The notes: generated by a model not told the origin, from the sequence alone. Shown: positions 861-53,947, numbered from the whole stretch's first letter. The stretch: 58,484 nt of DNA, filler included, from Asterionella formosa (GCA_002256025.1; 4 parts of 4 records of this genome joined end to end with filler, not necessarily neighbours in it), one strand, 5' to 3'. Program-made: numbers and translations.

Positions 861-1370
861 CATACATCACCAAAGTATGATACGTAATATTGAATAAAGT
901 ACATCACAGAACTATGATACACTGATCATAAAATTATGATGATTTTATGAAATGTTTATGATATATTTTTGATCAAAATATGATTATGTTAAAATAATAC
1001 AATGATAATAAAATACGATAAAATATGTACGCAAGTGTTACCAAGACATCATAGAAAATAAATCAAGCAATTATAAAGTATGTTAATTAATATATGTGTT
1101 TGTCGTTTAATGTATACAGTTAAAGTCAACAGTTAATATGATAGTATTATACAGTGGATAGGATCTATGTATATGGATGCGTTGATATGTACATCACTAT
1201 AATATGATTTGTGATATGGATTGATGCATATCACATACCGGTGTTCTCAACAGCCGGCCATCACATTCATTGTCGTGTCGTCTTTCCTTGTTTTAGCTAT
1301 ATACCGGCATATACCAGCATGTGTATTGTGTAAACACTACGATGGCGGAACATGCATATTACACTGTGCT
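861..1370. repeat. Left arm of ~500-bp inverted repeat (partner ~10640-11123)
   Basis: catacatcaccaaagtatgatacgtaatattgaat (861) is the reverse complement of ~11090-11123. The similarity continues to ~1370 vs ~10640. ORFs 1221+ and 10568- translate to near-identical peptides (MMHITYR.QQPAITFI...CKHY.GGTCILHC). Confidence 0.9.
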
Positions 1371-3576
1371 GTATCGTCATGTTCAAAAGGATCTCTTCCC
1401 AAAAATTCCCGACATGCAATACCTATGGCAATGTTTTCGATTATTCGTTGTCCAGATTGAAGGTCCATTAGGTGATGTCGTTTTTGAGATGTTTTAGCTG
1501 GTAACTTGCAAAGGAATTTTAAATTCTTTTCCATTGGTCCCCCATTGAAAACTTGCGGACTGCCAAACCGTTCGATATTTCGGACAGTATGCATCTGCTG
1601 ATGAAACTTTGTCATTTTCCAGCCTTGCTCTGTCGTTTCTCTTGGGAAAATCTTGACTAATTTTGTGTAGTACTTGACAATGGATCGACAATCAATTTCC
1701 ATCAATCGATGTACGTCATAACTTTCTTGGCTGAACCAGGAATTAGAACAAACCATGCCCTCGAAAAACATTTGGATGTCTTTTATTTCCTGCATTGACA
1801 TTCCAACTTCATCCTTGCAAAGCTTGATTCCGGCGTCTGTAGCCATTACCAAACAAGCAACAAGCATTACCCCAACAGTTTCATTTCCTGTTATCTTTGG
1901 AAAACATCCATGGAATCCACCATGAAAATTGCACCTTGGCATATCCCGATCGCTTTGATGTTGCATCATCTTTGACACTTTTATGAATAATGTATCAAAA
2001 GCGGTTCTATTTTTCAACCCCTGAGCAGAGGTAACAGTGCCGAACTTTATCGAGAACAGAAGAATGAGATAACGAATCATTCCCTCATGTATTGAGTGCA
2101 ACTTTACAGGAGGGCAATGGCCATTGATTCCCAATGGATCTCCACCAAAATCCAACGCATACCAGCAAGGTGTAATAAAACGTTGTGACACAGCATCCAT
2201 TAGTGTTTTGTCATTCATTCCTAATAGGGCAGCATAACCCACTTGCCCTACTGGAGAGCATTTGATTGATGGTTTATCTAATTTGTCGTATGAACAATCA
2301 CATTCCCAACAGAGACGAAAAGTTTTCAGGTAATTTTTAATCCTCCTACACTGATTGTCCAATCCTTCCGCATCGCCAAGCACCAACCCGACCGGTACCT
2401 TTACAACCAGGCTATGCTGTTTGCCATGGAAATTGAAATTATACTTGAAGCCACCAGATCTCTGAGTCTCTTGAACTCCCGACAATATAATTGCCAAAAT
2501 TGTGTGATAATCCTTGCACTTATCGTCGGCAGTCATATTTTTGTTCAATGCAAGACTCTGACCATCAAGTTTTGCTATTAGACCAAGGGGGCGCCAAGCA
2601 ATGACTTTGTTCCTTACAGTTGTACGGAAAATCCCAAGAGAAAACAAAACTGGCTCCATGGTGAATTTAGAATTTTCTACAGTATGTGTTCTATCAATGA
2701 AAAACATGAGATGGACGAGAAAATCATTGGGTTGAATGCACAGACAGTTGTGAGCGTCAATCCACCAACTCCCGGTGTGTAATTCTGAACGGACATCAGA
2801 CGGTTGTGGAGCCTTGCAGGGATCAGAAAAATCGAATGAAGCATTATTGGGATGCATTAATCTGGGATTGGAAAGTAAGCTCTTGATTGCAACAATAAAA
2901 TCAAAGCAAACAACGTCGACACTTCTACCACAGTAGAGGGTGACTGCATTATCACATGGCTTTTGGTCTTCCATCTCAAACCGGGTAAACAGATCTTTCA
3001 GATATGTGTTTCGACGTTGAGGAATAGCTTCTAAAATCGTCATTCCTGCCATTTGAGAAGAGACATGCCATTTAAGAATTGCATCATAAAGATATAATGG
3101 TGACCTACTACCAAGTAAAATGCTAAGTAGCTCCGTTTTTACAACATCCTTTTGTGTGTAGGCTGTACCTGGATCTTCTTGGCAAAATCGGAAGTTGGTA
3201 GGGTTTATAATGTCGTTTATTTCTCCATTCTGAATGATTGGACTATTAATAGCAGCAGCATCATGATCTACTAAACTATCAAGGAATGAACCATTATCAT
3301 AGTCATCGGCATCAAAACAAAACAAACTGTTTGAACGAAATCAATGGCTGCTCGCGATTGTTTCAGGAATTTTGCAAGGGGGTCATGAGAGTGGTGTCGT
3401 CCATCTCTTGGCGAAGTCGCTACCATTAATGATGTCTGCGATGCTTGAATCTGAGATTGAATCATATATTGTTGCCCACACGAGGGGCTGTGTCTGTGAT
3501 GACCACGAATTGATTTAAAAGGACCTTTACCGCAGAATTTACATTTGTCCTCGTCGTTATTGTCACACAGATCCAT
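1337..3576 (-). mobile_element. Plavaka/CMC (CACTA-related) transposase with N-terminal C2H2-like Zn finger; frameshifted and 3'-truncated
   Basis: The 662-aa ORF has ELHTGSWW, FFIDRTH, PVLFSLG, AWRPLGLI, YHTILAIIL, LGDAEG..CWECDC, LHSIHEG and KFHQQMH...IERFGSPQVFNGGPMEK, motifs typical of Plavaka/EnSpm-like transposases. The upstream frame (ATG 3576) carries CKFCGKGPFKSIRGHHRHSPSC and needs a frameshift at ~3271-3340. The ORF runs into the inverted repeat at ~1370. Confidence 0.8.
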
Positions 3577-14554: not shown

Positions 14555-14654
14555 NNNNNNNNNNNNNNNNNNNNNNNNNNNNNNNNNNNNNNNNNNNNTT
14601 AATTAATTAANNNNNNNNNNNNNNNNNNNNNNNNNNNNNNNNNNNNNNNNNNNN

Positions 14655-29203: not shown

Positions 29204-29667
29204 NNNNNNNNNNNNNNNNNNNNNNNNNNNNNNNNNNNNNNNNNNNNTTAATTAATTAANNNNNNNNNNNNNNNNNNNNNNNNNNNNNNNNNNNNNNNNN
29301 NNNATGGACAAATAAGATTGATTTATGATGGTGCAGTGGTTGAATTTCCCAAGAGGTTACAACAATATACGACTAATCTGAGTTGAAAATTCAACCAAAA
29401 GAAGAGGAAAAATTCAACCGCCAATGCAACCGGGTTGAAATTCTTGGAGGTCAGTACCTAATTTTACCACGGTAAAATGTTGTCAATACTGTCAAGGTAC
29501 CATCATGTCCCGAGTAGGACAATACCAGGGGTCTACAGAAAAATACAACTTGGGTTGAATTTTACCAATAACAGGTAGGTACCAGGTAACCGGTATACCG
29601 GTATCATTCCTTGTGTTGGATGATGCTCTCTACATACCGGTAATCAAATACGGTACATTGATTTCGA

Positions 29668-30847
29668 ATGAACACCATGTTGTTTGCCAGGGCTTTTCCT
29701 CGCTCTGCTACCTTCATGGTTCGAGTGGCACAGCAACAATTCATCACACCAGCTGTTACGACTTTTGCGTGTCAATCAATAACACCCAAAACAACAATAG
29801 CACCAAAAAAAAGACTATTGACTTTCTGTTCAAGATATTTTACCACCACTCCCGCCGTCATCACTGACAATGAACCCACCAGGCTTTCCAAACTCTTGGC
29901 TCAATCAAACAAATTCAAAATCAGCCGCCGCGAAGCAGAACGATTGATTAAACATGGAATGGTTACCATTGCTGGGCAGGTTGTAACATCTCCCTTCATC
30001 ATGGTCACGCCCTCGGAGGTTGCCAACAGCATCAAAGTACAGGGCAAACTGTTGCAACCACAGACGGCTCATGAAGCAAGACCTAGAGTATGGATCGTTC
30101 ATAAGTTAATAGGAGAAGTGATTTCGGAACAAGACCCACAAGGAAGACCGTCTCTGTTGGAACGATTGATGCGAGCGGGGGTGGGAAAGAATTTGCATCT
30201 CAAAGCCGTGGGACGATTGGACATGTCCACCGAAGGACTGATTTTGGTCACTAATGATGGGGGATACAAGAGAGAGATGGAATTGCCGTCTAATAGATTG
30301 CATAGAACCTATCGAGTCAGGGTTCATGGAAAATTGGCGCCCTACAAGTTAAAGGCAATGAGGCAGGGACTTACTATTGAGAACATACACTATCGAGGCA
30401 TGATGGTCCAGATTGAAAGTAGAAAGACAGAGGGTACCAATACGTGGTTGAAATTGACATGTGTGGAGGGCAAAAATCGACAAATTCGTAAAGTGTTGAA
30501 TCACCTTGGTTGTAAGTTAGTGTGTTTGTTCGTTTCTTCCCAATAAATGTTCACCCATGTGTGTATATATACATCATCCCAAACACATGGAACTCATGAA
30601 GCACATGTTTGCCTACAATACAGTGAACGTGACACGCTTGATTCGAATCGCCTACGGAGATTACGATTTGCAAACAATTCCTCCTGGTATGGCCATGGAA
30701 GTTCCTATCAAGCCGTTGGACTTGCACAAACGACGAGGCAATTTGGTGACAACGACGACCAACAATAGCAAATCAAAGCCAAAGGCGCTTTCTCCTTCTG
30801 CCAAAGAAGAAAAATCTACTCCTGTTCAGTGGGTGAGGCACTCATAA
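29668..30847 (+). CDS. RsuA/RluB-family rRNA pseudouridine synthase, probably mitochondrial (intron 30512-30623)
   Basis: S4 domain RLSKLLA...SRREAERLI..G.V.I.G, catalytic VGRLDMSTEGLILVTNDG, EGKNRQIRKV, and spliced L|NVTRLIRIAYG. The basic, hydroxylated N-terminus resembles a transit peptide. Confidence 0.92.
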
Positions 30848-31998
30848 AAGCCATTGATCTTTCAAAAATGGTGAAGTTCTCCATTCCCGGTAGTTTGTAC
30901 TGATCAATGATTATGAGTAGAACGTTGGAAACAATGGTTACGTGTGTTCATAATGCTAGATCGCTCAACCGACAGTGCTGTTGGAAGAAATCCTTCCATC
31001 CCTCCTGTAATTTGATTTTTTTGTTCATCATCATGCGACAGACATAGATGTATACGCTTGATGCAATTTTTGTTGATGGACCAAAGGTTGCAAGACTATT
31101 TATTGACGCACTGAGACAACATGGTATTCCAGGGAAAATAGGAATGTAGACGCAATTGAAGACTGAAAAAACTACTATCATGCAGTTCACAGGTATGGTT
31201 GTGAGTACACCCGACAGCTCCACCTACTTTTAAATATATCCTCCTTCTTGTAATGTGAGTTGACCCATCAATCCATTTTTAAGTATAGAAAAAGAAACGC
31301 ATCTCCATTCTGCAGTATTGGACCAACAGTTAACTCCTGAGCATATGTATAGTCCCTTGCGTTTATAACATGTGCAAATGGGCAGCAATATTGAAACTTC
31401 TGTCTATGAACTTCATGCATACAGAGATGTTCTTCATTCATGTAAGTTGTCGTTAAAAAATAACATAAACCCTACCAGCAGGTAGCTCGTGCTACATACA
31501 TACAAGAAAGATAACAAGGGTTGAAAAAGCCTCAACTTTTAGTCCAAAACGTGAATTTCCTCGATGTTTCCACGTGGTCGCGCGTCGGCTCTCAGATTTA
31601 TAGTACTGGATACTACGATTTGCATAAAATTTGTTTTCAGAAATACCGGTTGTCTGCCTACCAGCATACACGGGCGATGATCATCAGTGTCGTCTGAATA
31701 CATTCTGTGTGATGATGAGGAAATCATAAAATACTTCATGCACATGACTGATTCCAACTAGTCGTTTTTGGATCCGCTATTCGACATAAACCCCGCCGAG
31801 GATCGATGATCCTGGAGTCGTCTCATCTTCTCTCCTCTCCTCTCGTCTTCTCTCAACCGGTGCCACATCATAGCTTTTTTCATTCTACACTGCATTGTCC
31901 TTTTCCTTAGTTGAATAGACTGTTATTCTATTCGAGAGAGAGAGATCAGACTACCAATAGTTTCTTATTCTCTCAACCGAGATTTATCAACTTGAAGG

Positions 31999-34900
31999 AT
32001 GTACGGCAATTTGCATGAGGAGAAACTGCGAATTTTGGAGCTCTGCAGCCTTGATCTCTTGGAGCAAGAAGTCACGCCACTGCTTATGCAAATAGGGGTA
32101 CAGAAAGGTGCAGACAACTGCTACAGGATTTGGTACGAACACGATACCAAGAAGTATCCGTCCCTCAAGGCACTTGCCAAGCACTGTTTGGAGTGCCAGT
32201 TGAAAGTGGCCAAGGAAAGATTGACGGGGATTGATGGAGAGTTGGGAATCTTCAAATTATCACATTGGATCAAGTCGGCGCTCGTCCCAGAAGATCGTAT
32301 CGCTGACCTGTTTTTTTTTCTCAGGCCTCTTACTAAACCCATGAGTCACGCTACAGCTAAGTGGCAACTAGATAGATTGAAGAATTTATTAGCTGGAGTT
32401 GTGCAATGGAATTGGGAAGACTGTGGAAAGCTGGGTTTTCCTGTTGAGTGCTGGGCAGAGAATGAATCTGGAATTACTCCGCAAGACAAGGTTAGGATTC
32501 TCCTCAACTATCACCATACAGAAAGTAATCGAGTGTGAGTCATGTTCACATGTGTGCATGTATTTACATTGGAAGTAATATTCTGCAACTCACAGTTCCA
32601 GTTTTCAGAATTGTTCGGTCCACCATTGCATGTGAGAATCCAATTCTCAAAGAACGCAACGGAAATACCGAGCCATCCTTCCAATCATCGACTGAATTGT
32701 CCACTCAAAATGATCCCATTTATCTTGAATCGAGCGAAAGAAAGCAACCTTCTATCCAAACATTGCCGGAATTGGTGACCAACAATGATCCCATGCTTCT
32801 TAAACTGATAGAAATGCAGCAACCGTCAACTGTTTGCACTAATAATGATGCCATTAGTCGTGGATCGAACAATACAAAGGCACCGTCTATTCAACCAATA
32901 CCTGATTTCTTCACCAATAAGGATCACATGCTTCTTAAATCTAGCGAAACAAAGGAACCATCAAATGAAGTGTTGACAAGCCCTTTTCTACCTTCCTCCT
33001 CAGAATTCACAGAAACGTCGACACCGTTGTTAAAGTCGGAATCATTGTCAGCCCCATTGCAGGTGCAATCCCAAGTTTCGACCCATTCGTCGAGACGGTC
33101 CAAACGGGCAGGCATTCCTCTTTCTGATGGCCAAAACTTGTCGAAGAAGCCCAAGATACGGTCGTCTGCTCGATTTAGTCAAAATTTTGAAACTCAAGTT
33201 CCAATCATTGAAGATAGCTTAGCTTTGAAATTACTCAGAGCATGCAACCATGGGTTTGAAAACAAGCATCAGGAATACAACATCCCTTATATTAATCATC
33301 CTGTAAATGGCATAAGCTCTTTGAAAGAAATGAGATCAATACTATGCAAGAATGGAGTTCCTTTGGCACCTGGTGTTGATAATGTCAGAACTTCGTTAAC
33401 AGAAAGTGAGTCCGAAAAGTTGAAAGTTTGGGTGAGATTGGCGATTGCACCAGATTTGCGGTCATTTGTTCAACCTTCTTGTGCTTTTGGTATCAAGGAG
33501 GCTCAACTGGCTTTGATGGCATCAAGCGTGGTTACAAATGAATGTGGTTGGAAATTAGGTGACTTGACTTTTAGTACTTTCTCTCAATTAAGTAGTCATA
33601 TTCACTATCATGGTTTGGGCCAACCAATAGTGAGCAGCCCAGAAATGGAGAAAGCCATGGTGTGTATTGCTCTTGGTACCAGTACTCCTTCGTCAACGTT
33701 GTAAGTTCCAATCCCTACATGCATGTATTTAAATGTCCATACCTGGTTGTTGTTTACTAACATTATTGTTCATCAGCGTCATCCAGGAAGTGCCCGTCAA
33801 AGTTGAGCCTGAGCTGTCAGTTAATCTGCTTTCTGAGAAGAACCCATACGTCAAGAGGGACTTATTTGCCAAAATTCCTTCTACTGGTTTAGATGAGATT
33901 CCCCTCCCAGTAAGAATATGCCAAAAGAGAAAGAGGTTGGATCGCCCCATTCAAAAATTGAGTTTTGATGAAATTGACATGATGAGCCAAGTTAAATCCA
34001 GCTCAGATAGCATTTACTACTACGAAACTCTCGGCTCACTTCGAAAGCCACCTGAAGTATCCTTCAAATGGGGAAAGCAGCTGGGTTGTAGACGAACAAT
34101 GGGGCGGCAATATTTTGACTCTTTTGTTTTGCACAAACAACATTTGACCGTTGGAGATTTTGTTGTCCATAATGCGAATGATGGAACTAATAAACTATTC
34201 AAAATTGTATCAGCATTTCAAGCAATTCATTCTGTCCATGGAATTTGGACAGGCACTAGCCGTTCTCGTGAGTGCTTGCAAAAACGAGGTGAGCAATAGT
34301 CAGAGGGCATGTTCCAATTTTGGTTGGGGTTTGGGATCTCATCTCACATATCAGCTGTTTACAGGCGAACCCTATGTTGAGGTAGTCCCATTCGAAAATA
34401 GGAAGAAGTTGGGTAGCAAAAACGAAGTTTTTCTCCATGTTGCGGATTCCTGGCATGTTGGACATGTTCAAGCTGTCCCCTTGGCTCTCATAGAGGACGG
34501 TGAAAGTTTCTCCCGAGTTCGTGTACAAATTTACCCCTCAGAGTTGGAGGAATCCTTTGAATTTGTTTGTGTTGGGCTCCCAGGGAAAGTCCCACTGTTA
34601 TATGCCCAAAAGGTTTTTCTAGCTGAAACTTGTCCGCAAAGGCTGCAAGACTTTGTCTACGGAGAATGGGCTGATGCATGCAAGGCTGAGGCAGTTCAAC
34701 TTCTACGCCGGGAGCGAGTATGCAGTTACCACTTCAAAGGCTATGTGCTTCCAATAATTGAGACAAAATTGAGCAGCGATGACAGTGATAGTGATGAATG
34801 TGATGAAGATGCATCACTGGACATATCCCTGGTTTCAGTAGCAAGATTTGATTCCAAGGAGCTGCACGAGCTACAGAGAGTACAAAATGGTCTCAAGGTA

Positions 34901-37900
34901 GTTAAGCTTCGCAAAAAAACTCCATTGCCCACACTTTCAATCAGTGGAAGTATCTTTAATCTCAGCCAACAAATTAAGAAGTGCAAGGACGATTCTTCAT
35001 TTGACACTGGCGCAAAATTGCTTGAGCTGTTACAAAAAGCTCCAATTATTAGCTCCAATGCTCAGCTTGCTGAAAATGCAACGAAATTGCAGTATGATGT
35101 CTCCATGGCGATTAGACAACTCCAACCACTCAGAACGTTTTTCACAATCTATCCTGAATCAGAGTTGCAAACTAGCGCATTTGAACCAGAGCTCAAATCC
35201 GAGATTGGGAGGATTTTACGTGATGACCTGAATTTTCCCAAACGCCTGCATTGTCTTCAATCTGAATTTATTATGGAGGCTTTGTCAGAACCACACATTG
35301 ACACAGTGCTGGTGGCACCATGCGGATTTGGAAAGAGCCTTTGCTTTGCTGTGCCCGCACTTTTTCGTCGTGGAGTAACATTTGTCATTGAACCATTGCG
35401 AGTGCTAGTCGAAAATCAGTACAACACATTCGAACCAAATGCTAGAGCCGGGAAGTTTGATGTGCATCGGCTGTTGTCCCGCCATCTAGCAGCGAGCCTG
35501 AGGGAGAAGGATCATGATGCAGTGCTACTGGAGCTTAGAAACCGTTGCCGGAGTTTGAACTCAAAAAGCACATTAATTTTTTCCACTCCTGAGTTGATTG
35601 ATCACCATCTTGCTGCCATATCATGGCTGAAGAATGCTGGTGTCTTGGTATCCATCGTCTTTGACGAATTTGACATACAAACAGAAACCTATGAAGATTT
35701 TCGCGAAGTCTACACAAATCTCCTTCCGAAGTTGCGAGAAAGCTGCCCCGATGTTAGTTTTATGTTTCTATCTGCAACTGCGTCAAAAAGGGCACTGTTG
35801 TCAATTGTCCCAAAAGTTGCAAGTCCAAAGCGAAAGATCAAGCTGTTTGTGGCTAGTAGAGCAATCTCCGATAACCTCATATTTAAGGTGGAACGAAAGG
35901 AAAACCCTGGGCAGGTGAGAAAATGGTTGGATCTTGACTATAGGTGGATGTGTTATCACTGGCGCTCATTTTTTTTCATGTTTCAGGTTGCGATGAGAAT
36001 CAAAGAAATAATTGGGCCGACAGAGAAAGGGAAAAATGCACCCAAAGCATTATGCTACTGCCTGTCAAAGAAAGAGTGCCGTGAGATGGCAGGTCGACTG
36101 AATGTGCTTGGGATTCATGCCATTGCCTTCACAAGTGATAATAATGATGATGGAACTGCTCCTGACATATTGAGATCGTTCTTGAAACCAAATGACAATA
36201 CTTATTCCTTGCTTTGTTGCACAACAGGTAGGTTCATAAGAAATTGCAGAAGATGTCTACATCAAACCCATGTACTAACCTCATTCTCCACACAGTACTT
36301 GGTCGTGGATTTCATCATCCCAGCATTCGGTTTGTCTTCCATGCATACATTCCGCATTCCCTATCAAATTACATTCAAGAAACGGGACGAGGTGGACGGG
36401 ATGGGCATGCAGCTACATGTGTGCTTTTCTACCGTAATCAAGATATATCGTTAGTGGAAAGCATCAAGGGTAGCCTGGGCAAGAAACTTCCTCATGCACA
36501 ACGTTTGCTTCTCGATGAAGATATGATGTCAATCGCTACCTATTGCTTTTCAGACAAATGTCGGTATGCCTTCTTGACTGCCGCTGCAAGATCATCTGAT
36601 GGTGGCAGTGAGTCAAAATGCCTTCCCAAGTTCCCTTGTGACAATTGTTGGAAAAGGGGTGCAGGATCACGATTTGTTAAAGCAGATTTAAGCCCAATTG
36701 TCAGCAAATTCCTCGGCTCGGTGGAGGATGACATGCGCCAGCACCTTACTGCAACATTGACACATAAGCACATTGAGTACTTGCTGAGGAGAGCCATAGG
36801 GCGTCAACCTGTTCAAGCCATTGTTCCATTCTTGCGAAGGCTTGATGATTGTTCCGAGGGAGAAACACCGTTGTGCGTTGGTGATATAGAACAGAACTCC
36901 CCAGCAAATGACTTATTGAGGTATTTGCGAATATCTGGAGTCCTAAACTACAACAATGGATTGAAGGAGTATGCAAAGGGCGACAACTTTGAAGTATTTG
37001 AAAACCAGCTTGTGTCCAAAAGTGTCAGTATATTTGTTGAGTACATGCCAGTGACCCTGCCAGCTTGCCAAGTCCCAGTCCATAGACATATTTCAAAAGT
37101 TGAAGATGCCGTAAATCTGCAGAATTGTGTTGGAGATGATCGGACGGCACTAGGAATGCTTCGGCATCAGTCTAGTAGTCATTTTGTGAAGCGCAATCAG
37201 AAGAGTGTGATTCAGTTGCATGGAGATGATTCTACCTTAGACTCCATTTTATTCGATCTTCCCTTTTTCCTGCAATTTGAGGTGTGTCGCGCCCTTGGAT
37301 TGGTGACAGATGCCGATGTCCATGTCGATAAAGACAAACTGAAAGAGTTGATAAATGAACAAGTTATGCTAGGCATAAATCCTGTGAAGTTTCTGAATTC
37401 TGTACATGACCTGTTTGGCTCAGTCGCAACAATGTCACCTTACCTGAGCAGAGATGGCAAAACTATTCGCGAATCTCTGTACTTTCAGGCGAATTTGAGA
37501 CCTGATGGTGTTATCAAGCTGATTTGCCCAGAGGTGGGAATTGATCGCAGGATCTTTAGAAAGTTTGGCTCAAATCGATTCCTGCACATCAATGTTTGCT
37601 CTGATAATATTCCCAACTGGTTCCAAAAAGGATTCAACATCTTTGGTAGATATTGGCGGTTTCTCTGGTGTAAAACCACGAAGTCTCCACAATGCTACAT
37701 TTTTTTTGCAGAAAAGGGAGTTGGGATAAGTCAAGACAAGGCAATAACAGTTGAGAAAGTGCGAAATTGGTGCATTCCAATTGAACTGAACAAGGGTCTA
37801 ACAATTGCAAAGGAATTCAAGAGACTCAAATTGTCATTTTCAAAGACTACGCCAAGTGGGATACTACCACACAGATGCGTTGAAATAATAGATGATATTG

Positions 37901-40048
37901 TGAATCTAAAAGGATCAAAGACGGACAGCTCCATCATGACCGATGGATGTGGCCTCATCTCAAGAGATGGAATCGACTATATCTGGCGAGCATTTCATGG
38001 TATCATCAATGAATCGGATGCACAATCAAAAGAAATTGAATATCATTGTCCATGTGCCTCATTCCAAGGTAGAATTGGAGGCTTCAAAGGAATGTGGGTT
38101 TATGACAGCATTCTGGGGTCAATGGATCAGGGAATAATTCTTCACTGTCGTCGTAGTCAGCTGAAATACAATTTACCAATGAGATGTTTGACAAACAAAG
38201 CATGGGAACAGCTTGGACTCAAGCTGGATGAAAGTATTGTTGACGACTGCTATGATACCGTCGATGTCAACAGTTGGGATGACACCCCGGAAAAAGGGCG
38301 TCTTAGTATTCGGGCAATTCAGTTGCTGGAAGAAAGGGGTGCATGTTATGACATTGTTGAACAATGTGCAAAGGACGGCACCAAGGAACTTGAAGAATTC
38401 ACGATTGATAAGTCAGCATTGCCAATGCAGATTTTTCGTCGGCATGCGAACATGGTAGCTGGTGATGTTATTGGCGATGATCTTCTCTTTGAAATGCAAG
38501 CCGCCAGTGTAAATCCTAACGAACCTATTTTTGCTGGGCTGCGAACTAATTTTATGAAATCTAATGCAGAGAAAATGCGGTTAAAGGTGAGAAAGGAATG
38601 TTGCATTTATTACTATTGTTCATTTCCCAATTGGCACTCATGCTACCACAGGGTCAATACCCCTTACGTGACTGTCTGAACTTGAGGATGATCCCAGATC
38701 ATCTTGGACTGTTGGAGGAAGGGGAAGTTTTTATAGCAATTGGGCAGGGGAAGGATGTAAGGCATGCCAAGCAGGCAATATTGATGAGGAATCCTTCATA
38801 CTTTTCTGGAGACTTACGAAAGCTCAATGTTATCCCTTACGAAATCCTGCATGAACGATCACTTCGAGAATGTTCACTTGGCAGTTCGCAAAACCAATGC
38901 ATCGAATTTTTTAGGTCGCTCCTCAGCAGTACAGGTGGTGCAGTGGTTTTGTCCACTAAGGGTGATCGAAGTGAAGCGCACAGAATGAGTGGTGGTGACT
39001 TTGATGGCGACAAAGCGTGGGTGTGTTGGTTTGAAAAGCTTGTCGATCCTATTGTGTCGCTACCTGCTGAAGATTTCGATGCATTCGAAACGGTTCCAGT
39101 CAATGCATCTGACATTCCACATCATTCTTCAAGCACTGCAACAATAAATGACAGAATCCAATATTCTTGGCACTTCCGAAGGCATCAGTCGCATCTAGGC
39201 TCTCTGGCTAATACATTGGACAAAGTCATTGACAGATTCGGGTTTAAGGATAGCGCTGAAGCTGCAGAGGTGGGCATGCAAGCTTTTCTTCAGGTAAGAA
39301 GCCAATTGTCATATTTCCTTCATGACGCACATGAGCGAAATGAATTTGACTTACTCACTAGAAAACTTAGGTGGACGACCCTTATGATCTTTGCGAGATT
39401 AAAGCATGCGTGAACGACCAAGTCAAGAAATTGAATGACCCCCATTGGAAGGGCAAAACTAACTTTTCCCCTTCGTCAAAGCAATATTTTGTCGGTAAAC
39501 TCTACGACTTTGTGGGTGCCGCCATCAACAAGGCTGTTGAGGCTGGCAGTGTTCAGGTACGGATTCCAGATCAGCGCATTGAGCGTTTCATCAAAAAATC
39601 ATTCACGTTGGACAATCTTGAGACATTGTCTCTCTTGAGAGGGAAAATGAAGAAGGTAGCAAATAATTACGACAAGGAACTAGCCAAAACACTAGAAAGA
39701 GCTAAACTTCACGATGGGGACGCAGATGCATTCATCAAGACTTGGAAGAGTTGTTTCATTCAACAGCTAAAGCGCGATATTTTTCAAGGCCTCGATGATA
39801 CTGAAAGCATGGTATATGCAGCTGTCTTGTATGAACAAACGTTCCAGCTCGCCCAAGATAAGGCTGCTGGCCGTGCAACTGTGGCAAAACAAAGGTCGAA
39901 GATCGATTCAGCTGATCTGGCATGGAGAGTGGCGTCCGATAAGCTGTGTACTGTTATTGCCAGGGCAAGCCCTGGATTATGGCCACTTGTCGTGACGAAA
40001 GATTCAGAAAGGCTGATGTTTGGAAAGAAAATTAAGAAGAATAGGTAG
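31999..40048 (+). CDS. BAH-like / RecQ-type helicase / RNA-dependent RNA polymerase (RDR) fusion protein, 8 exons, ~2513 aa
   Basis: GT-AG introns 32535-32608, 33701-33776, 34289-34364, 35915-35986, 36228-36295, 38587-38651 and 39294-39370 join the ORFs in frame (7542 nt). Helicase motifs: APCGFGKSLCF, VIEPLRVLVENQ, VFDEFD, LSATA, YCLSKKEC, TTVLGRGFHHPSIRFVFH, YIQETGRGGRDG, and RQC-like CRY...CDNC. RdRP motifs: TDGCGLIS, FQGRIGGFKGMW, PDHLGLLEEGEVF, RNPSYFSGD, MSGGDFDGD. The start codon and first exon are the least certain parts. Confidence 0.88.
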
Positions 40049-40847
40049 ATTTCCCACTATTTACAGAAATCAGCCCACCGTTTGTGTACGATAATATGAG
40101 TCACCCTAATTGGTTAATGTCAGTTGGAGGTGGTCTCTAGTCCAGCGCTATAAAAATCCTGTTCCCACTAGGCTCATCTAGAGAGTGAAACAAAAGGTTG
40201 CCTCCAGCGTCCTTTTAGTAAATACAGCATTTGTTGTGGGTGTTCACCATCCTATTTTGACAAAACACAATTGCATAGTCAATGTTTACTATTTCCACAT
40301 CTCTTATGTGACGCCATCCACTTTCAAACTAAAACAATGCCGTTCAATCACAAAAACCTGAGAAGCTGTAACTCTCGAAGGTAAAACTTTTATGACAACG
40401 TCTCTCGTCGTCCTCATACCGTCGATAGTGCTCAGTCCTTTAACTGCCGTCGAAAACAGTGGCCCTTTCTCCAACCTCATTGTTTTCCCATTCCCAAACA
40501 TAAAAGGCTCCCAACTCGAATCCCCCGAATCTTGGCATGTTCGGATTGCCCAATATTTGACTTGATTCGGACGGCACCTTCTATCACGCATACCCAAAAT
40601 ATATTAATATGTTTGTACCTTGATTATATGACGCAATGGGGACACTACCTGTACAACACCAAGAACAGCACGGAAATACAATGAACCACAGAGATTCATG
40701 TGAATAGGACGATACATTCAAATCCGAATGCTGCTGGCTGTCACAGCAAACTCTAGTCTATCGATATACACTACGCTTCTTGACTTTTCCGTGATATTGT
40801 CGTTGCTGCAATTAGTATATATTTCAACCGCTTCATGGGTACATGAA

Positions 40848-43121
40848 CTATTTCGACGGTACATTTCTCAGCCGAGTTTCCATTGCCGACTCTTCATAAT
40901 CATCCAACAAAGACCGACCAGAGGAGGCTTTAACCCCAACGGATGGTCGTCCCAATGCTGGTGGCCCCATACCCAGAGTCGTTCCAGGATGGAGACAAGT
41001 GCCTTGTCCCATTCCGGAATTCAAACCCATTCCCATGCTTTCGTTGCCAAAGACGTTGCTTGCTTCGACTTGATTCTGCAAAAAATTGCTAGACCCGCCT
41101 AAATTTTGAATGCTAGTTTTACCACTTATTCCCATGCTTGTAGGGATACCAGAGGTCATGGTTGACTGCACTTGTTGCGATGATTGGCCGCGGTCAAAGA
41201 ACATTGATAATCCAGATAAAAGACGTGAAGGACTAGATGCCAATTTCAAAAAGGTTGATGACACTGTAGGAGCCAATACTGGTGGTTGTGGAGGGCCGTC
41301 CGTGCCATTATCGGACAAAAGATGGTGACCTTGTTGTTGTTGTTGTTGTTGCTGCTGCTGTTGCAAGTTACTTCCTAGTTGATTTTGCTGTTGAGCTACT
41401 CTTTGCATCGCATTTTGATTGTGATGCTGAATTTGTTGTATCTGCATGCTGTTGGGGGGCAGGTGTATTTGCTGCATGACATCTTGTTGCATCTGATGTT
41501 GCGCCATATCGCTTGATGATTCCCGGTTGAGAGGCCAAAACGACGCAAGCCAGTCTGAAACTTGCGTTGTAAAACGCGTCAATGAAGGGACATCAGAATT
41601 TGGCTTGAAATCACCGGAAGTGTCTAATGGCCGAGGTTCGTAATCTTGTGGCAAGTTAAAGTTGGGCATCTTATCCATTGAATGTGGATTGGAAGAAATA
41701 GTGTCCGCTCGGTGATTAAACGATTGCTGCTGGAAGCCTGCCGATAAGTTTGACTGATATTGCGAGGAAAAAAGATTCAACGACGTGGCCTGCTGTTGCT
41801 GATACATATTACCTTGGTTGAAGGTGGAGTTTTGGTTATCGTTAAACGTCGTCGTGGGCATCCCTTGTGGCGTGACTCCTTTGTCATGAAATGTAGGAGG
41901 CAACTGCTCCATCGACTGTGTCAGTCCGAAATTACGCACGTCTTGAGCAGCACTGTCGGCCATTGCTTGTCTGAAGCTTTGATCTGGCATTTTTTGCAAT
42001 CCCGATCCTGTCATTTGGTCGAACTTGGGCGGTGTTGCCATTTGACCATAGCTTGCAACTGAGATTTGCGACAAGGAATGATCAAAAATCGGTGCATTGA
42101 GAAGTGAGCTTGTCGATGTGATTGGATCGAAGTGCAGCGGTCTCGATGGCGCCATCGGCTGTCCGAAACTTGGTGCTACAATATGAGATTTATTGGAAGA
42201 TTGATCGCTAAATGCGTTGGCACCAGATGATTGCGAGGCGAAGTTCTGGTACCCTCCATTTTGTTGTGTTTGAAAATTCCTCATGGCTGGAGCTAGAGCG
42301 GGAGGCTGGTGTTGCGAACCACCGAAGAGAGCCGACTTTTGAAAGAATCTAAATACAGAGCTAGCGCGCTGCTGAAGTGGTGCAGTAGGCATCGGCATCG
42401 GGTCTTCTTCTATCTTTTGACGTTTCGCTCCAAAACTGAACCACGAGGACCCCCGCTCCAAGGGACGCTTGCCCCCTCCAGGAGGCGGAGGCACATGCTC
42501 CGAGGCAGAATCTTTTGTCAGATCTCTGGATGGCGGAGGAGGCAAGTCAATCTGCGGCTGCGCAAGTTGAGACTTCGCAATGGCCGCCTGTGCTAGATCC
42601 GACAGATTAGGTGGCAACCCCGTGTTGCCTTTCAACACAGGCACCTCGTCATCATTGTCATCGTCGCGATCGCGCTCCCTCAGCGCCTGCGACGTCTTGT
42701 CGACTGCTCGCTTGTAGGGAACAGGATACCAGAGGCCATTGGTCTTGTGACATTCCAAGAATCTGCCTGGCGGGTTTTGCGACAGCACGTGGTGCACAAT
42801 CGCCTTGCTGACTAGGAGCTTGGTATGTTTCGGCGACTTTTTGTAGAGGCTTCGGTTGGATCTAACCAAGCGACGGTACCATGAGTTCCCCGGATGGCTG
42901 GGGGCAGTGGAGGTGGTTTGAGAGACAGTGGCAGTGAGGGTTGGCGTACATGATAGCCGCAAGGAAAGCATCTGCGAGAAAGTCACTTACTGGTTGGTCA
43001 GACCGCCGCGACCGCAGAGAACGTCGTGATCATGAGGATGCAGCACATGCTCCGCTGGTGTGTGCTCCTGCTCGTTCCTAATAGGGAGTGTACCATGGTG
43101 CGAGGACAGGTGACTTTCCAT
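40848..43121 (-). CDS. DUF6824-type diatom protein with long Gln/Ser/Pro-rich tail (intron 42898-42990)
   Basis: The spliced N-terminus reads HPHDHDVLCGRGGLTNH|HPGNSWYRRLV...K..VSKAIV..V....PPGRFL......GLWY.V....AVDKTSQALRE, the conserved diatom DVLxGRG domain. PolyQ further downstream. Confidence 0.88.
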
Positions 43122-45049
43122 GACCTGAGCTGAGCTGAGCGGATTCAGAGTGCGACAGCGATGAACTGCAACAACGAGTAATGGGAGCAGGCTCGCGCGG
43201 ATCAGATTGGAAGGGAGTTTATCAAAGTGTATAAGTGCGATGCTTTCGTCGCTAATGGTCGCGTTTTCTCAGCTGTGTCTCGTTGAGGGGCTGATGTAGA
43301 GATGTATATAAGTGAAGCGACTATAGCGTCCAAGGGTGAACGGAAGGAGAAGAAAGCGACCTGTGCCTCGTGACTTCGTGGGACTAGTCAATTGCTAATA
43401 GTTGATGCAGTGACTATCGGTTGAAATTAAATCGATCTATGTATTATACAGTAGGGATGGCGGCTACCGGTAACACAGTTCATCCATCGAAGAACACCGG
43501 TATGTTGCTTGTCTATCGTGCTGCGTACATTGGCATTCTTGGACGTAGACTTGTGTACTACATTGATTGTATACTTGCTCGCTCGTTCCTGGGACCTGCC
43601 TGGTACCACTTAAAAACTGTAAGCCACCGCTATTTTACTCTATCTTTCGACTAAAAATATTTATGTAATTCAACGATCAAAACTTGACGCAAGTACAAAG
43701 CTTATGTTAGACAATGCTCTCTGCTATACTATTAAGGAATCAGTTTTGATTCAGTGTATCTAGCCATGAAGAAATAATTTTTCCAAAGTCACTAAGATTA
43801 TTGCATAGCGGTGGCTTACAGTGCATATTTTTCTATCTGTACATNNNNNNNNNNNNNNNNNNNNNNNNNNNNNNNNNNNNNNNNNNNNTTAATTAATTAA
43901 NNNNNNNNNNNNNNNNNNNNNNNNNNNNNNNNNNNNNNNNNNNNACATATTAGTCGTCGTCATGCATAATGCATTACATAGAAATACGGTTTGCACACGA
44001 CCTCACTTTAGAAGTGTTGTAACCTGGTAGGAGTTGTGTCTGCACCGTGGTATGGTACCGTTAGTGAGCGAGAATGACAAGAAGCGTTGAAGTTCTTTTC
44101 ATTGGCTGTGTATGTAGATTTCTATGTATTGCTTGTTGCTCTCGTCTCGAACGAGCGAACCGCCATCACGATTCCACCTACACATGTAGAATGATGCATG
44201 CAGCTGTCAGCTACCATTTACTCCCAGGCAGAGCAGGGTACCGCCCAGGTGCGATGCATAGGACTAACAATCAATTACATAATAGCTACCAGTATGTAGT
44301 GTACTTACCGTACCTGGTACCTGGTACCTGGTACCAGGTACCGAAAAAGTCCATGCAGTCGGTGCATAATAAATACCGGTATGTACCCGTACGTTACATA
44401 TAAAGTACCTAGTACCACTATCTTCGCTTGTCAAATGTACCCATTCTTTACATATACCAGTACCGGCATCTTCGCTTTTCATGCTGGTTACTACATATAG
44501 CAGGTAACGGTAATTATTAGAAGAAGCGCTTCCCGGCGCGCCACATTTCGTTCTGACTTCCATACATGGAAGTGCAGGAATCAAAGAACAGAACAAGCTG
44601 TCAATTTTTGGATGATGTACCTGGTCCCGGTAGCTATGTACAGTACCGGTACTCTACCATTAGAGTTTCCGGTGGCGCGCCATTTTTCTCAGGGTATATA
44701 TAATTTGTACCATTGCATGTAAAGAAGGCCACTGGTACTTACCGTTGACACCTGTTGGCGCGCCATTTATCTCAGGGTAATATAATTTGAACCTGGTCCA
44801 GGTACCGGTACCCTTGCATGTAACTTTCACTGGTATGTTCTCCACCACCCACCACCTAAGAACTGATACCGGTAGCTTGCGTTACTTCCATATTTAGTCT
44901 CAAAGGTTGCCTTAGCTACCGGTAGATGAGAAATGGAATGGAAAAGCTAAATTAATGTTTACTCCATTCAGCTTTTTTTGTCAGTACAAAATTTGCAATG
45001 ACATCAATGACGTTGTTTTGCTTACTCCTTTACCATATTGTGTACAATT

Positions 45050-52797: not shown

Positions 52798-53947
52798 TTA
52801 GAAGTCGGCGAAGAAATTGCCATTCATTGCACTCAACTTGGCCATATTCGACTCCAGAGTCGACACCTTAGGTTTCGGAGGTTCCACTGGCTTAGGAGCT
52901 GCAACTGGAGAGGGCGCCACGACAGGAGATACTGGATTCAGAGCGTCAGTGCCACCGCTTTCAGCTTCCACTTCGCCATTTTCAACTTGCTCCTGAACTT
53001 TTCTCGCGTTTTCTGCTTCTGCCTTTGCTCGCTTTAATTCCTCTTCGGCTGCCGCCGCTGCCTTTTGGGTTGTTTCAATGTCTTCAAACCCAACATCAGA
53101 TGTCGTCATCTTGAGCGAAATTTTGTTGACTCGCAGTGACGTTTTGGCGGTGATTGGCTTCTTCGACATTTGATATCCAGACGAGCCCGATTGAGGCTTT
53201 CGCAACATTCCCGTCGTGTTGATACTTAAAGTGCCCTTGGCTGACGAATTTTGCGAGGCCAAAACGGCCGAAGGCGTCAAGGTTCCTACTGATGTTCGAG
53301 CGGCACTCAACTTTGCTCGCGCTTCTGCCTGCTCGTCTTCCTTCACCCTGAGCTCCAAATTTTCCAACAAGGTCCCCGCCTGTCCCAAGGGGTCGGCAGT
53401 AGTTCCTTCCACAAATTCACCACGTTTGACGGCGTCGGCATCAACTAGCTTTTTGAGTTCTGCTTTATAGGCGATGGCCGCCTTGGACTTGTACTTCTTT
53501 TCCGACTTGCCCTCAAAATCCGTATAACCGTGTTTTCGGAAAAAGGCCTTGGCATTTCCATTCCCTCCTAGTCGCATGGCATCGATTTGGCGCTGGGTCC
53601 ATTCATCAAGATCAGTGCTTCTAACGAATGTGAGATGCACGCCCATACTACGGTGGGTGGACGAGCAGTCGAGGCAGAGAAAGACTCCTGAACCAAGGGC
53701 GAAAAGTTGTTAAAAATTGAATCAAGCACTTGAATAACCCGGATGAACTCATTGAAAACGTACCGTAAGTCACACTGGCCCAAGTCGGTCTTGAATTGGA
53801 GCAATCGAAGCATTGGGCGTTCTCTTTCAGCGCTAAGAGCTTCCTAAACTGCAGCCGGCGATCGGCAGAGGGCACGCAAACAGCGCCTTTTCCAGCAGCT
53901 GTTATCGTACCATCAGCTTTGAAATTGCCGCTGTTGGGGGTCGACAT
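52798..53947 (-). CDS. ADP-ribosylation factor GTPase-activating protein (ArfGAP2/3-Glo3-like; intron 53688-53763)
   Basis: [46 protein letters not shown]...MRLGGN...FF...KYKSKAA, the canonical ArfGAP zinc finger. Confidence 0.95.

Follow-up and report, generated by a model that had tools for sequence, protein, structure and literature searches.

A RecQ-type helicase and a QDE-1-like RNA-dependent RNA polymerase encoded as a single chain by an expressed gene of the diatom Asterionella formosa

The plus strand of a 58,484-nucleotide stretch of Asterionella formosa DNA (the whole stretch analysed, hereafter the window) carried a run of long open frames at 31996-40048. These belong to a single gene of eight exons and seven introns, in which a RecQ-type helicase is followed by a cellular RNA-dependent RNA polymerase (RdRP). 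The coding region begins with the ATG at 31999, which has an in-frame stop one codon ahead of it, and closes with a stop codon ending at 40048; the computed spliced frame holds 2513 codons without a stop. All seven introns were short (65-77 nt) and bounded by GT..AG. From the N-terminus, the protein consists of about 600 residues without a family match, a BAH-like domain, an acidic linker, the RecQ-family helicase core (two RecA lobes, the zinc subdomain and a predicted winged helix), a linker and a QDE-1-like RdRP (Table 1).

The gene model was compared with RNA contigs from four public runs, representing four studies, that were aligned to positions 31000-41000. Only these contigs were counted as evidence; 16 of the 18 runs listed contained part of the stretch, 15 of them recorded as RNA, from 13 mostly freshwater studies. 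Contig X1, of 7720 nt, is from poly(A) RNA-seq, X2, of 9096 nt, from a lake metatranscriptome, and X3, of 7881 nt, from a library whose type is a guess; they came from three studies. Each of the three carried all seven exon joints in one record and spanned the region from the 5′ to the 3′ untranslated region (UTR), with 0-2 letters differing from the window per exon piece. Short contigs from a fourth study (X7) showed six joints out of seven. The sequence-only reading of this locus had proposed a single-gene fusion interrupted by seven frame-restoring GT-AG introns. Its intron model was matched to the base by the RNA contigs, and the fusion was borne out by one spliced mRNA with a stop-free frame of 2513 amino acids. 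Continuity of the transcript between helicase and RdRP, and a misassembly in 36300-37900, had been named as points to check; the first was found in the three single contigs and of the second the RNA contigs gave no sign.

The junction itself lies within exon 6. As had been claimed, this exon holds helicase motif VI, the zinc-site cysteines and the RdRP motifs TDGCG (37939-37953) and QGRIGGFKG (38065-38091) in one frame. The unspliced stop-to-stop open reading frame (ORF) at 36232-38679 matched Pfam Helicase_C (2.5e-4, below the cut-off, since only the end of the domain is present) as well as RdRP (1.1e-41). Since this ORF alone matches both domains, the fusion is independent of any splice. The locus is a genuine nuclear gene that is expressed and encodes a single-chain enzyme of 2513 residues.

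A public Joint Genome Institute (JGI) model of the same gene, P0003 (1842 aa), differed from the window protein at 5 of 1800 shared residues (99.7% identity). It begins at a false ATG inside intron 3 (window 34238-34364) and is without 713 N-terminal residues that are backed by RNA contigs, including most of the BAH-like domain. The RNA-supported gene model corrects this truncation. P0003 stood in for the window protein in those analyses for which a whole protein was needed. Environmental and culture RNA contigs departed from the window at 12 coding-region sites (7 synonymous, 5 non-synonymous), which are too few for a selection test; the four at codons 1824-2301, within the RdRP, were all synonymous.

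The polymerase half was readily classified. PF05183 matched P0003 at 7.7e-73 (246.5 bits against a cut-off of 23.8), covering profile positions 10-580 of 582. Among PDB sequences searched with phmmer, the RdRP half matched Neurospora QDE-1 (5.8e-13) far better than RDR2 of Arabidopsis (7.7e-05). It is a eukaryotic cellular RdRP with an intact catalytic DFDGD, and QDE-1 is its nearest solved structure.

For the helicase half, Pfam recovered DEAD (6e-17) and Helicase_C (1.6e-09) on P0003. Of the set of families that had been expected, DEAD, Helicase_C and RdRP were thus found, and RecQ_Zn_bind gave no match at E<=1. A phmmer search of PDB returned BLM (1.1e-38), RECQ1 (1.9e-32) and Escherichia coli RecQ (1.5e-27), along with RECQ5, WRN and RECQ4, and the 38 top distinct sequences were of the RecQ family without exception. 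DEAD-box RNA helicases entered the matches only from 2e-06, and the 60 PDB sequences listed (E<=1e-3) included neither Dicer nor RIG-I chains. The top NCBIfam model was TIGR00614 (1.2e-56). The motifs GFGKS and QETGRGGRDG agree with the GxGKS Walker A and the QExGRAGRDG-pattern motif VI of RecQ helicases, and the alignment to BLM extends through the zinc subdomain up to CDNC. The four-Cys zinc site of the window protein was seen by alignment only; PF16124, the Pfam model for this subdomain, does match the relatives P0099, P0046 and P0010.

The piece after motif V (window 36298-37521) was folded with AlphaFold2 (AF2) from an 18-row alignment, with a mean predicted local distance difference test score (pLDDT) of 62.9. 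In a Foldseek search with this zinc and linker piece all rows listed were RecQ structures, and 24 matches had E<=1e-3. VIA-align superposed residues 1-252 of the model on residues 227-516 of C. sakazakii RecQ, through the winged helix (Z 9.3, root mean square deviation 4.5, 200 residues), and the winged-helix chain 7nyw_D was matched on model residues 130-239 with Z 9.0. A winged helix downstream of the zinc site is therefore predicted with moderate support. Because the strong matches in PDB, NCBIfam, the BLM alignment and the fold search were all to RecQ, the helicase can be assigned a RecQ catalytic-core layout, and a RecQ-type rather than a Dicer-type helicase, as the sequence-only reading had also named it beside a QDE-1-like RdRP, is supported. 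With DEFD at motif II it is a divergent member of that family.

Upstream of the helicase, residues 555-775 matched the N-termini of other fused proteins: residues 555-727 matched P0011 (7.5e-12), 621-775 matched P0072 (3.4e-9) and 607-735 matched P0161 from Corethron (1.5e-4). The P0161 fragment was folded from an 8-row alignment, with a mean pLDDT of 44 and values of 70-80 in residues 65-156. In a structural search that did not rely on Foldseek, ranks 1-13 among 48,161 representative chains were all BAH domains (Z 11.1-6.2), headed by ORC1 (Z 11.1), BAH1 of DNMT1 (11.0), MET1 (10.7) and TNRC18 (10.4), with AIPP3, EBS, ZMET2, Rsc2, ASH1L and ORC1b following. The top Foldseek rows were also all BAH, the best at E 1.5e-3 and none reaching 1e-3. 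The Pfam BAH model did not match the window protein. We consider this domain to be probably BAH-like, its fold having been modelled in the Corethron homologue and the window copy being tied to it by alignment. BAH domains are readers of nucleosomes and methylated histones. The N-terminal region of about 600 residues had no Pfam match at E<=5, a best PDB phmmer value of 0.061 and no match among the collected homologues. Its Atlas matches to bacterial transposase-like clusters (at most 0.86, with at most 115 shared features) were treated as noise.

Table 1. Features of the RecQ-RdRP fusion gene and of its surroundings, in positions of the window
Feature	Position	Strand	Remarks
Fusion gene, coding region	31999..40048	+	exons 31999-32534, 32609-33700, 33777-34288, 34365-35914, 35987-36227, 36296-38586, 38652-39293, 39371-40048; 2513 aa; joints RNA-supported
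5′ UTR, extent of RNA contigs	31747..31998	+	X2 from 31747, X3 from 31776, X1 from 31910
3′ UTR, extent of RNA contigs	40049..40164	+	X1 to 40137, X3 to 40164
N-terminal ~600 residues	31999..33966	+	exon 1 structured-looking, exon 2 Ser/Pro-rich
Conserved N-terminal domain, BAH-like by homology	33967..34549	+	aa 607-775, spans intron 3
RecQ-type helicase core and zinc-binding subdomain	35246..36699	+	aa 1008-1445; introns 4 and 5 inside
Walker A / motif I, GFGKS	35324..35338	+	aa 1034-1038
Motif II, DEFD	35663..35674	+	aa 1147-1150; DEAH in RecQ; D and E invariant across 10 fused proteins
Motif VI, QETGRGGRDG	36376..36405	+	aa 1338-1347
Four-Cys zinc site	36556..36648	+	C1399, C1419, C1425, C1428; invariant in 10/10 aligned fused proteins
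Predicted winged-helix (RQC-type) domain	36670..37047	+	aa ~1436-1561; AF2 pLDDT 75-90 in these blocks
Eukaryotic RdRP domain, PF05183	37525..39508	+	aa 1721-2334; introns 6 and 7 inside
Catalytic DFDGD	38997..39011	+	aa 2190-2194
Intron 1	32535..32608	+	74 nt, GTGAGT..TTTCAG; in 4/4 runs
Intron 2	33701..33776	+	76 nt, GT..AG; in 4/4 runs
Intron 3	34289..34364	+	76 nt, GT..AG; public JGI model reads into it
Intron 4	35915..35986	+	72 nt, GT..AG; within helicase
Intron 5	36228..36295	+	68 nt, GT..AG; within helicase C-lobe
Intron 6	38587..38651	+	65 nt, GT..AG; within RdRP; in X1, X2 and X3 but not X7
Intron 7	39294..39370	+	77 nt, GT..AG
Non-synonymous variants	32233, 33861, 35117, 35759, 39815		RNA contigs vs window
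Pseudouridine synthase	29662-30546		neighbour
DUF6824 protein	40848-42986	minus	convergent; 1.5e-19
ArfGap	52798-53709		neighbour
Plavaka-transposase-like ORF	1337-3340	minus	667 codons; 2.5e-08; ~29 kb from gene

The architecture is not confined to this gene, and the uniqueness suggested by the sequence-only reading did not hold. An exhaustive HMMER search with the exon-6 ORF against 1.84 billion representative sequences gave 7779 matches when the E-value limit was 1e-3, and 162 and 41 matches under limits of 1e-10 and 1e-30, respectively. Among 150 matches listed, 24 were chosen for Pfam analysis (long proteins, proteins with the RdRP match deep in the chain, and the closest matches). Nine of these had DEAD, Helicase_C and RdRP, one had Helicase_C and RdRP, two had RecQ_Zn_bind and RdRP, and one had RNase H and RdRP; nine showed RdRP only, several being plainly fragments, and two showed helicase only. 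TIGR00614 was the best NCBIfam model in all ten relatives tested, and its cut-off was passed by five (P0098, P0116, P0087, P0099 and P0102). Besides the JGI model of the gene, members were found in the diatoms Corethron hystrix (UniRef A0A7S1FNS1 / A0A7S1FME2, named ‘DNA 3′-5′ helicase’) and Epithemia clementina (KAL7568845.1 and KAL7560756.1, ‘hypothetical protein’, ~2430 aa) and in Picocystis salinarum (EukProt P001767), and one family cluster took in Picozoa single-cell assemblies. The remaining members were metagenome proteins, many with the same layout, some of them auto-named ‘RecQ family ATP-dependent DNA helicase’ by JGI. Because public protein sets already display this architecture, the fusion gene is not new to databases, and no functional annotation of the members examined mentions the fusion. 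Using local family hidden Markov models (HMMs), both halves were matched by 54 of 212 collected proteins, corresponding to about 20 representative clusters besides that of the window, three of which had weak helicase-side scores (18-21 bits). The window gene is one member of a family of RecQ-RdRP fusions, old and conserved, that is present in diatoms and other protists.

Word-index protein searches retrieved few relatives (6, 15 and 21 proteins), mostly ordinary RecQ helicases. Within the length windows of these searches no Phaeodactylum or Thalassiosira protein was found, which does not show absence from these genera. The only Atlas matches to the whole public model were generic RecQ/DEAD clusters (0.82-0.84).

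In a 10-protein alignment the relatives had 21-34% identity to the window protein. Invariant positions included the DE of motif II, Q..GR.GRD of motif VI, the four cysteines and G.D.DG of the RdRP motif GGDxDGD; Walker A was nearly invariant, and P0116 ends at DYDG. The DEFD form of motif II was common to the four diatom-type proteins and P0098, and the others had DE[A/C/D]H. The diatom members also have the linker and the conserved N-terminal domain in common. Elsewhere the N-termini vary, with a PHD domain in Picocystis (P0077), SET in P0116 and AP2 with RAMA in P0098, in addition to the BAH-like domain of the diatom type. By these domain assignments, the family has recruited chromatin or DNA-binding modules repeatedly.

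Trees were built for both halves by quick searches from a query-biased sample. In the tree of 66 helicase cores, a branch supported at 97 in the Shimodaira-Hasegawa-like approximate likelihood ratio test (SH-aLRT) set apart 10 of the 11 fused proteins together with two short fragments, so that the helicases of the family appear to form a lineage of their own; the Picocystis helicase, which has a long branch and odd composition, lay outside the fused group. Among 35 RdRP domains, the window protein fell in a 100-supported clade of 14, made up of 10 fused proteins, the RNase H-RdRP P0190, the RdRP-internal fragments P0020 and P0101, and P0031. A branch with SH-aLRT 87 separated 15 ordinary RdRPs and Picocystis from all other fused proteins. 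The ‘fused’ label required 7 changes on this tree, at least 4 of them forced by starred branches; much of this changing was due to truncated proteins and Picocystis, and a single origin does not follow from this tree by itself. The trees fit, without proving it, one old fusion that may later have diversified, with that of Picocystis possibly separate.

In two metagenome-derived proteins of the same RdRP clade, P0190 with 1234 aa and P0038 with 888 aa, RNase H / RVT_3 domains take the place of the RecQ helicase, so that a second type of nucleic-acid enzyme is joined to this lineage of polymerases. Since P0190 aligns with window residues 1598-2508, that is from 1598 to the end, the N-terminal partner in this RdRP clade is either a DNA helicase or an enzyme of RNA:DNA hybrids. 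P0031 (1912 aa, from an ENA contig of 877 kb) had 56% identity to the Epithemia fused protein over linker and RdRP. Its 1337-residue N-terminus was of low complexity, and no helicase was detected in the protein, which either lacks the helicase as a true variant or reflects an error in the gene model.

Around the fusion gene the window held ordinary cellular genes, for a pseudouridine synthase, a DUF6824 protein and an ArfGap protein. Contig X2 continues into the convergent DUF6824 neighbour (40049-41000), so the 3′ ends of the two genes are close or overlapping. A Plavaka-transposase-like ORF near the start of the window is probably a transposon relic, and no second copy of the fusion gene was found within the window. 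Six runs of 44 N, in three pairs (14555-14598 and 14611-14654; 29204-29247 and 29260-29303; 43845-43888 and 43901-43944), lay near the quarter points of the window. They have the appearance of masking and not of a biological feature, and they leave the fusion gene untouched.

The closest functional parallel is in Neurospora. According to the accessible text of PMC2950127, QDE-1 copies single-stranded DNA (ssDNA) more robustly than RNA, produces double-stranded RNA (dsRNA) from ssDNA with RPA, and requires the RecQ helicase QDE-3 for its interaction with RPA. The sequence-only reading had cited the same pair, in agreement with that text. The same two enzyme families thus cooperate in quelling and in the production of QDE-2-interacting small RNAs (qiRNA), but as separate interacting proteins (PMC2950127), whereas in A. 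formosa the coupling is covalent, in one exon and one mRNA. Unlike the Neurospora pair, the window protein has DEFD in its helicase, no HRDC match and a BAH-like domain upstream.

Helicase-RdRP fusions as such had already been published with another type of helicase. The available part of PMC4791657 describes them in Dictyostelium (RrpA/B/C), in RDR1 of peronosporomycetes and in RDRs of Hydra and Nematostella, and reports none outside the groups named there. They share with the window protein an N-terminal superfamily 2 (SF2) helicase (DEAD and Helicase_C) and a C-terminal PF05183, and they include a stramenopile (PMC4791657, same part). By description they are set apart as Dicer-like DEAD-box helicases with GxGKT and DE[C/A]H or DEVH (PMC4791657, same part), whereas the window helicase has GFGKS, a motif VI of the form QExGRxGRDG, a four-Cys zinc site and a predicted winged helix.

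As far as the consulted parts of PMC2724275, PMC4247016 and PMC3155517 go, papers on RNA interference (RNAi) in diatoms list RdRP genes and leave a helicase unmentioned. A full-text literature search, with most subscription journals and PDF supplements outside its scope, found no description of a RecQ-RdRP fusion. None was described in the accessible text of PMC4839659 or PMC3155517, and that of PMC6896033 mentions the two enzymes only separately. Figure S2 of PMC3155517 (RdRP domain schemes) and the sequence sheets of PMC4791657 lay outside the search and might show diatom RdRPs with helicase domains. Within this scope, three features appear not to have been described before: that the helicase is of RecQ type, that a BAH-like reader accompanies it, and that the family is so broad.

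The database relatives from Corethron, Epithemia, Picocystis and metagenomes have the same order of DEAD, Helicase_C, in some cases the RecQ zinc domain, and RdRP; they differ in their sequence identity and N-termini, as given above. Assemblies for heterochromatic small interfering RNA (siRNA) offer a further comparison: in fission yeast RDRC (Rdp1-Hrr1-Cid12) works with RITS/Chp1, and in plants Pol IV-RDR2 works with CLSY and SHH1. Common to these assemblies and to the enzyme as proposed here is the logic of combining an RdRP at silent chromatin with an SF2 ATPase and a reader of histone marks. These assemblies, however, are multi-protein, with Hrr1 or the SNF2-like CLSY as helicase and a chromodomain or SAWADEE domain as reader, whereas here a RecQ helicase, a BAH-like reader and the RdRP would share one chain.

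We suggest that this single-chain BAH-like/RecQ/RdRP enzyme synthesises dsRNA from DNA while tethered to chromatin, a proposal to which we give an even chance. The N-terminal reader would tether the enzyme to marked chromatin, for example at repeats or transposons. The RecQ module would then use ATP to separate the strands of DNA or of an RNA:DNA hybrid and leave one of them exposed, as its family and its conserved ATPase, zinc and winged-helix parts lead us to infer. The RdRP domain could copy the exposed strand, or nascent aberrant RNA, into dsRNA, a step modelled on QDE-1 with QDE-3 and RPA in Neurospora, and Dicer and Argonaute would process this dsRNA to silencing small RNAs. New support for a role at DNA or chromatin may be seen in the predicted BAH-like reader upstream and in the PHD, SET or AP2 domains of relatives, and RNase H in place of RecQ in P0190 and P0038, of the same clade, likewise points to DNA or hybrids. 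The layout suggests that cells make silencing RNA directly at chromatin. A wider proposition is that RecQ-RdRP proteins are ancient, widespread single-chain initiators of silencing. In this view a chromatin or DNA reader, BAH-like here and PHD, SET or AP2 in relatives, would hold the helicase and the QDE-1-like polymerase on marked DNA, and unwound genomic DNA would be copied into dsRNA with no need of a separate aberrant transcript. This proposition is more tentative, and we place it short of even.

Several observations weigh against a chromatin-tethered, DNA-opening enzyme. Motif II is DEFD rather than DEAH, and the residues that follow it, IQTETYEDFREVY, are without the Trp/His of the RecQ aromatic-rich loop. 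In RecQ this loop couples DNA binding to ATP hydrolysis, and its absence therefore makes a changed or RNA substrate possible; none of the 10 fused proteins kept the Trp/His pattern. The TIGR00614 score of the window helicase (192.5 bits) is under the curated cut-off of 219.8, and Pfam RecQ_Zn_bind (PF16124), RQC and HRDC (PF00570) did not match P0003 at E<=1; HRDC occurs in many RecQ helicases but not in all of them. The winged-helix call depends on a model with a mean pLDDT of 62.9 and on Z values of about 9. The link between BAH and the window protein is an alignment at E 1.5e-4 to a Corethron fragment with a mean pLDDT of 44, and it has no Pfam BAH match beside it. The RNA contigs, finally, cannot reveal transcript ends or rare shorter isoforms.

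Some of these points would be explained if the helicase, descended from RecQ, now acted on RNA, remodelling the template or releasing the dsRNA, with no DNA template involved. We regard this as unlikely but as the most serious of the alternatives, and one that remains compatible with a chromatin-tethered amplifier of RNA. The DEFD of the diatom clade and P0098 is of the DExD form, the aromatic-loop pattern is gone from the 10 fused proteins, and elsewhere separate helicases serve RdRPs, as do fission-yeast Hrr1, nematode DRH-3 and plant SDE3. The published fusions, including the Dictyostelium and oomycete RDRs with their Dicer-like helicase, are read as RNA-pathway enzymes (PMC4791657, as far as accessible). 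However, the strong sequence and fold matches were all to RecQ DNA helicases, the zinc and predicted winged-helix DNA-binding parts are retained, and the BAH-like, PHD, SET and AP2 modules of the family, together with its RNase H variants, are indicative of DNA or hybrids. A role in genome maintenance is improbable; here the RecQ part would act at stalled forks, breaks or R-loops and the polymerase would make short RNAs there, either induced by damage or acting as primers, in the service of repair and with no control of transposons. Its nearest solved relatives BLM, WRN, RECQ1 and RECQ5 are indeed enzymes of repair and replication, and the QDE-1/QDE-3/RPA route also yields small RNAs induced by DNA damage (PMC2950127, in the text available). 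Reader, SET and PHD modules nevertheless fit targeting by chromatin state better than damage sensing, but the present evidence does not part the two roles, which overlap in Neurospora; genome maintenance also overlaps with the chromatin-tethered synthesis proposed above.

Explanations that deny a host gene fusion were rejected on the exon-6, RNA, intron and neighbour evidence. The contigs are assemblies, which do not prove single molecules, and X1 perhaps derives from the same material as the genome assembly, so that an apparent fusion of two adjacent genes, created by a faulty assembly, by chimeric contigs or by read-through, had to be considered, as had a decaying pseudogene. This is hardly credible: the end of the helicase and the start of the RdRP share one exon and one genomic ORF, the same spliced form came from three to four studies, 2513 codons lack a stop, the catalytic residues are conserved, and about 20 further protein clusters, of different provenance, have the same junction. 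An origin as a gene of a mobile element or giant virus is also very improbable. It could be proposed from the Plavaka-transposase-like ORF and from some RecQ-like Atlas clusters rich in Nucleocytoviricota (0.82-0.84, leads only), but that ORF lies at a distance of some 29 kb, the genes directly beside the fusion gene are of an ordinary cellular kind, and the fusion gene itself is interrupted by seven short spliceosomal introns, occurs in poly(A) libraries and has no second copy in the window.

How RNA silencing first recognises repeats and makes the initial ‘aberrant’ RNA is a long-standing question. To our knowledge the best mechanistic answer, in which a RecQ helicase and RPA hand ssDNA to a DNA-copying RdRP, rests almost wholly on Neurospora. 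A conserved covalent fusion with intact catalytic residues is independent comparative evidence for an old, functional partnership of helicase and polymerase, and it provides one polypeptide suited to assays of DNA-templated dsRNA synthesis. If the wider proposition is true, the fusion would be ‘Rosetta stone’ evidence that the DNA-templated QDE-3/QDE-1 route is general to eukaryotes and not a fungal oddity. Diatoms are major primary producers. They have DNA methylation and transposon-derived small RNAs, and their RNAi machinery is poorly defined (PMC2724275 and PMC4247016, in their accessible parts). With a function that is wholly inferred, the fusion gene is a concrete candidate for the initiating enzyme of diatom silencing, and, should the wider proposition be true, it would supply the missing RdRP arm of transposon silencing in diatoms.

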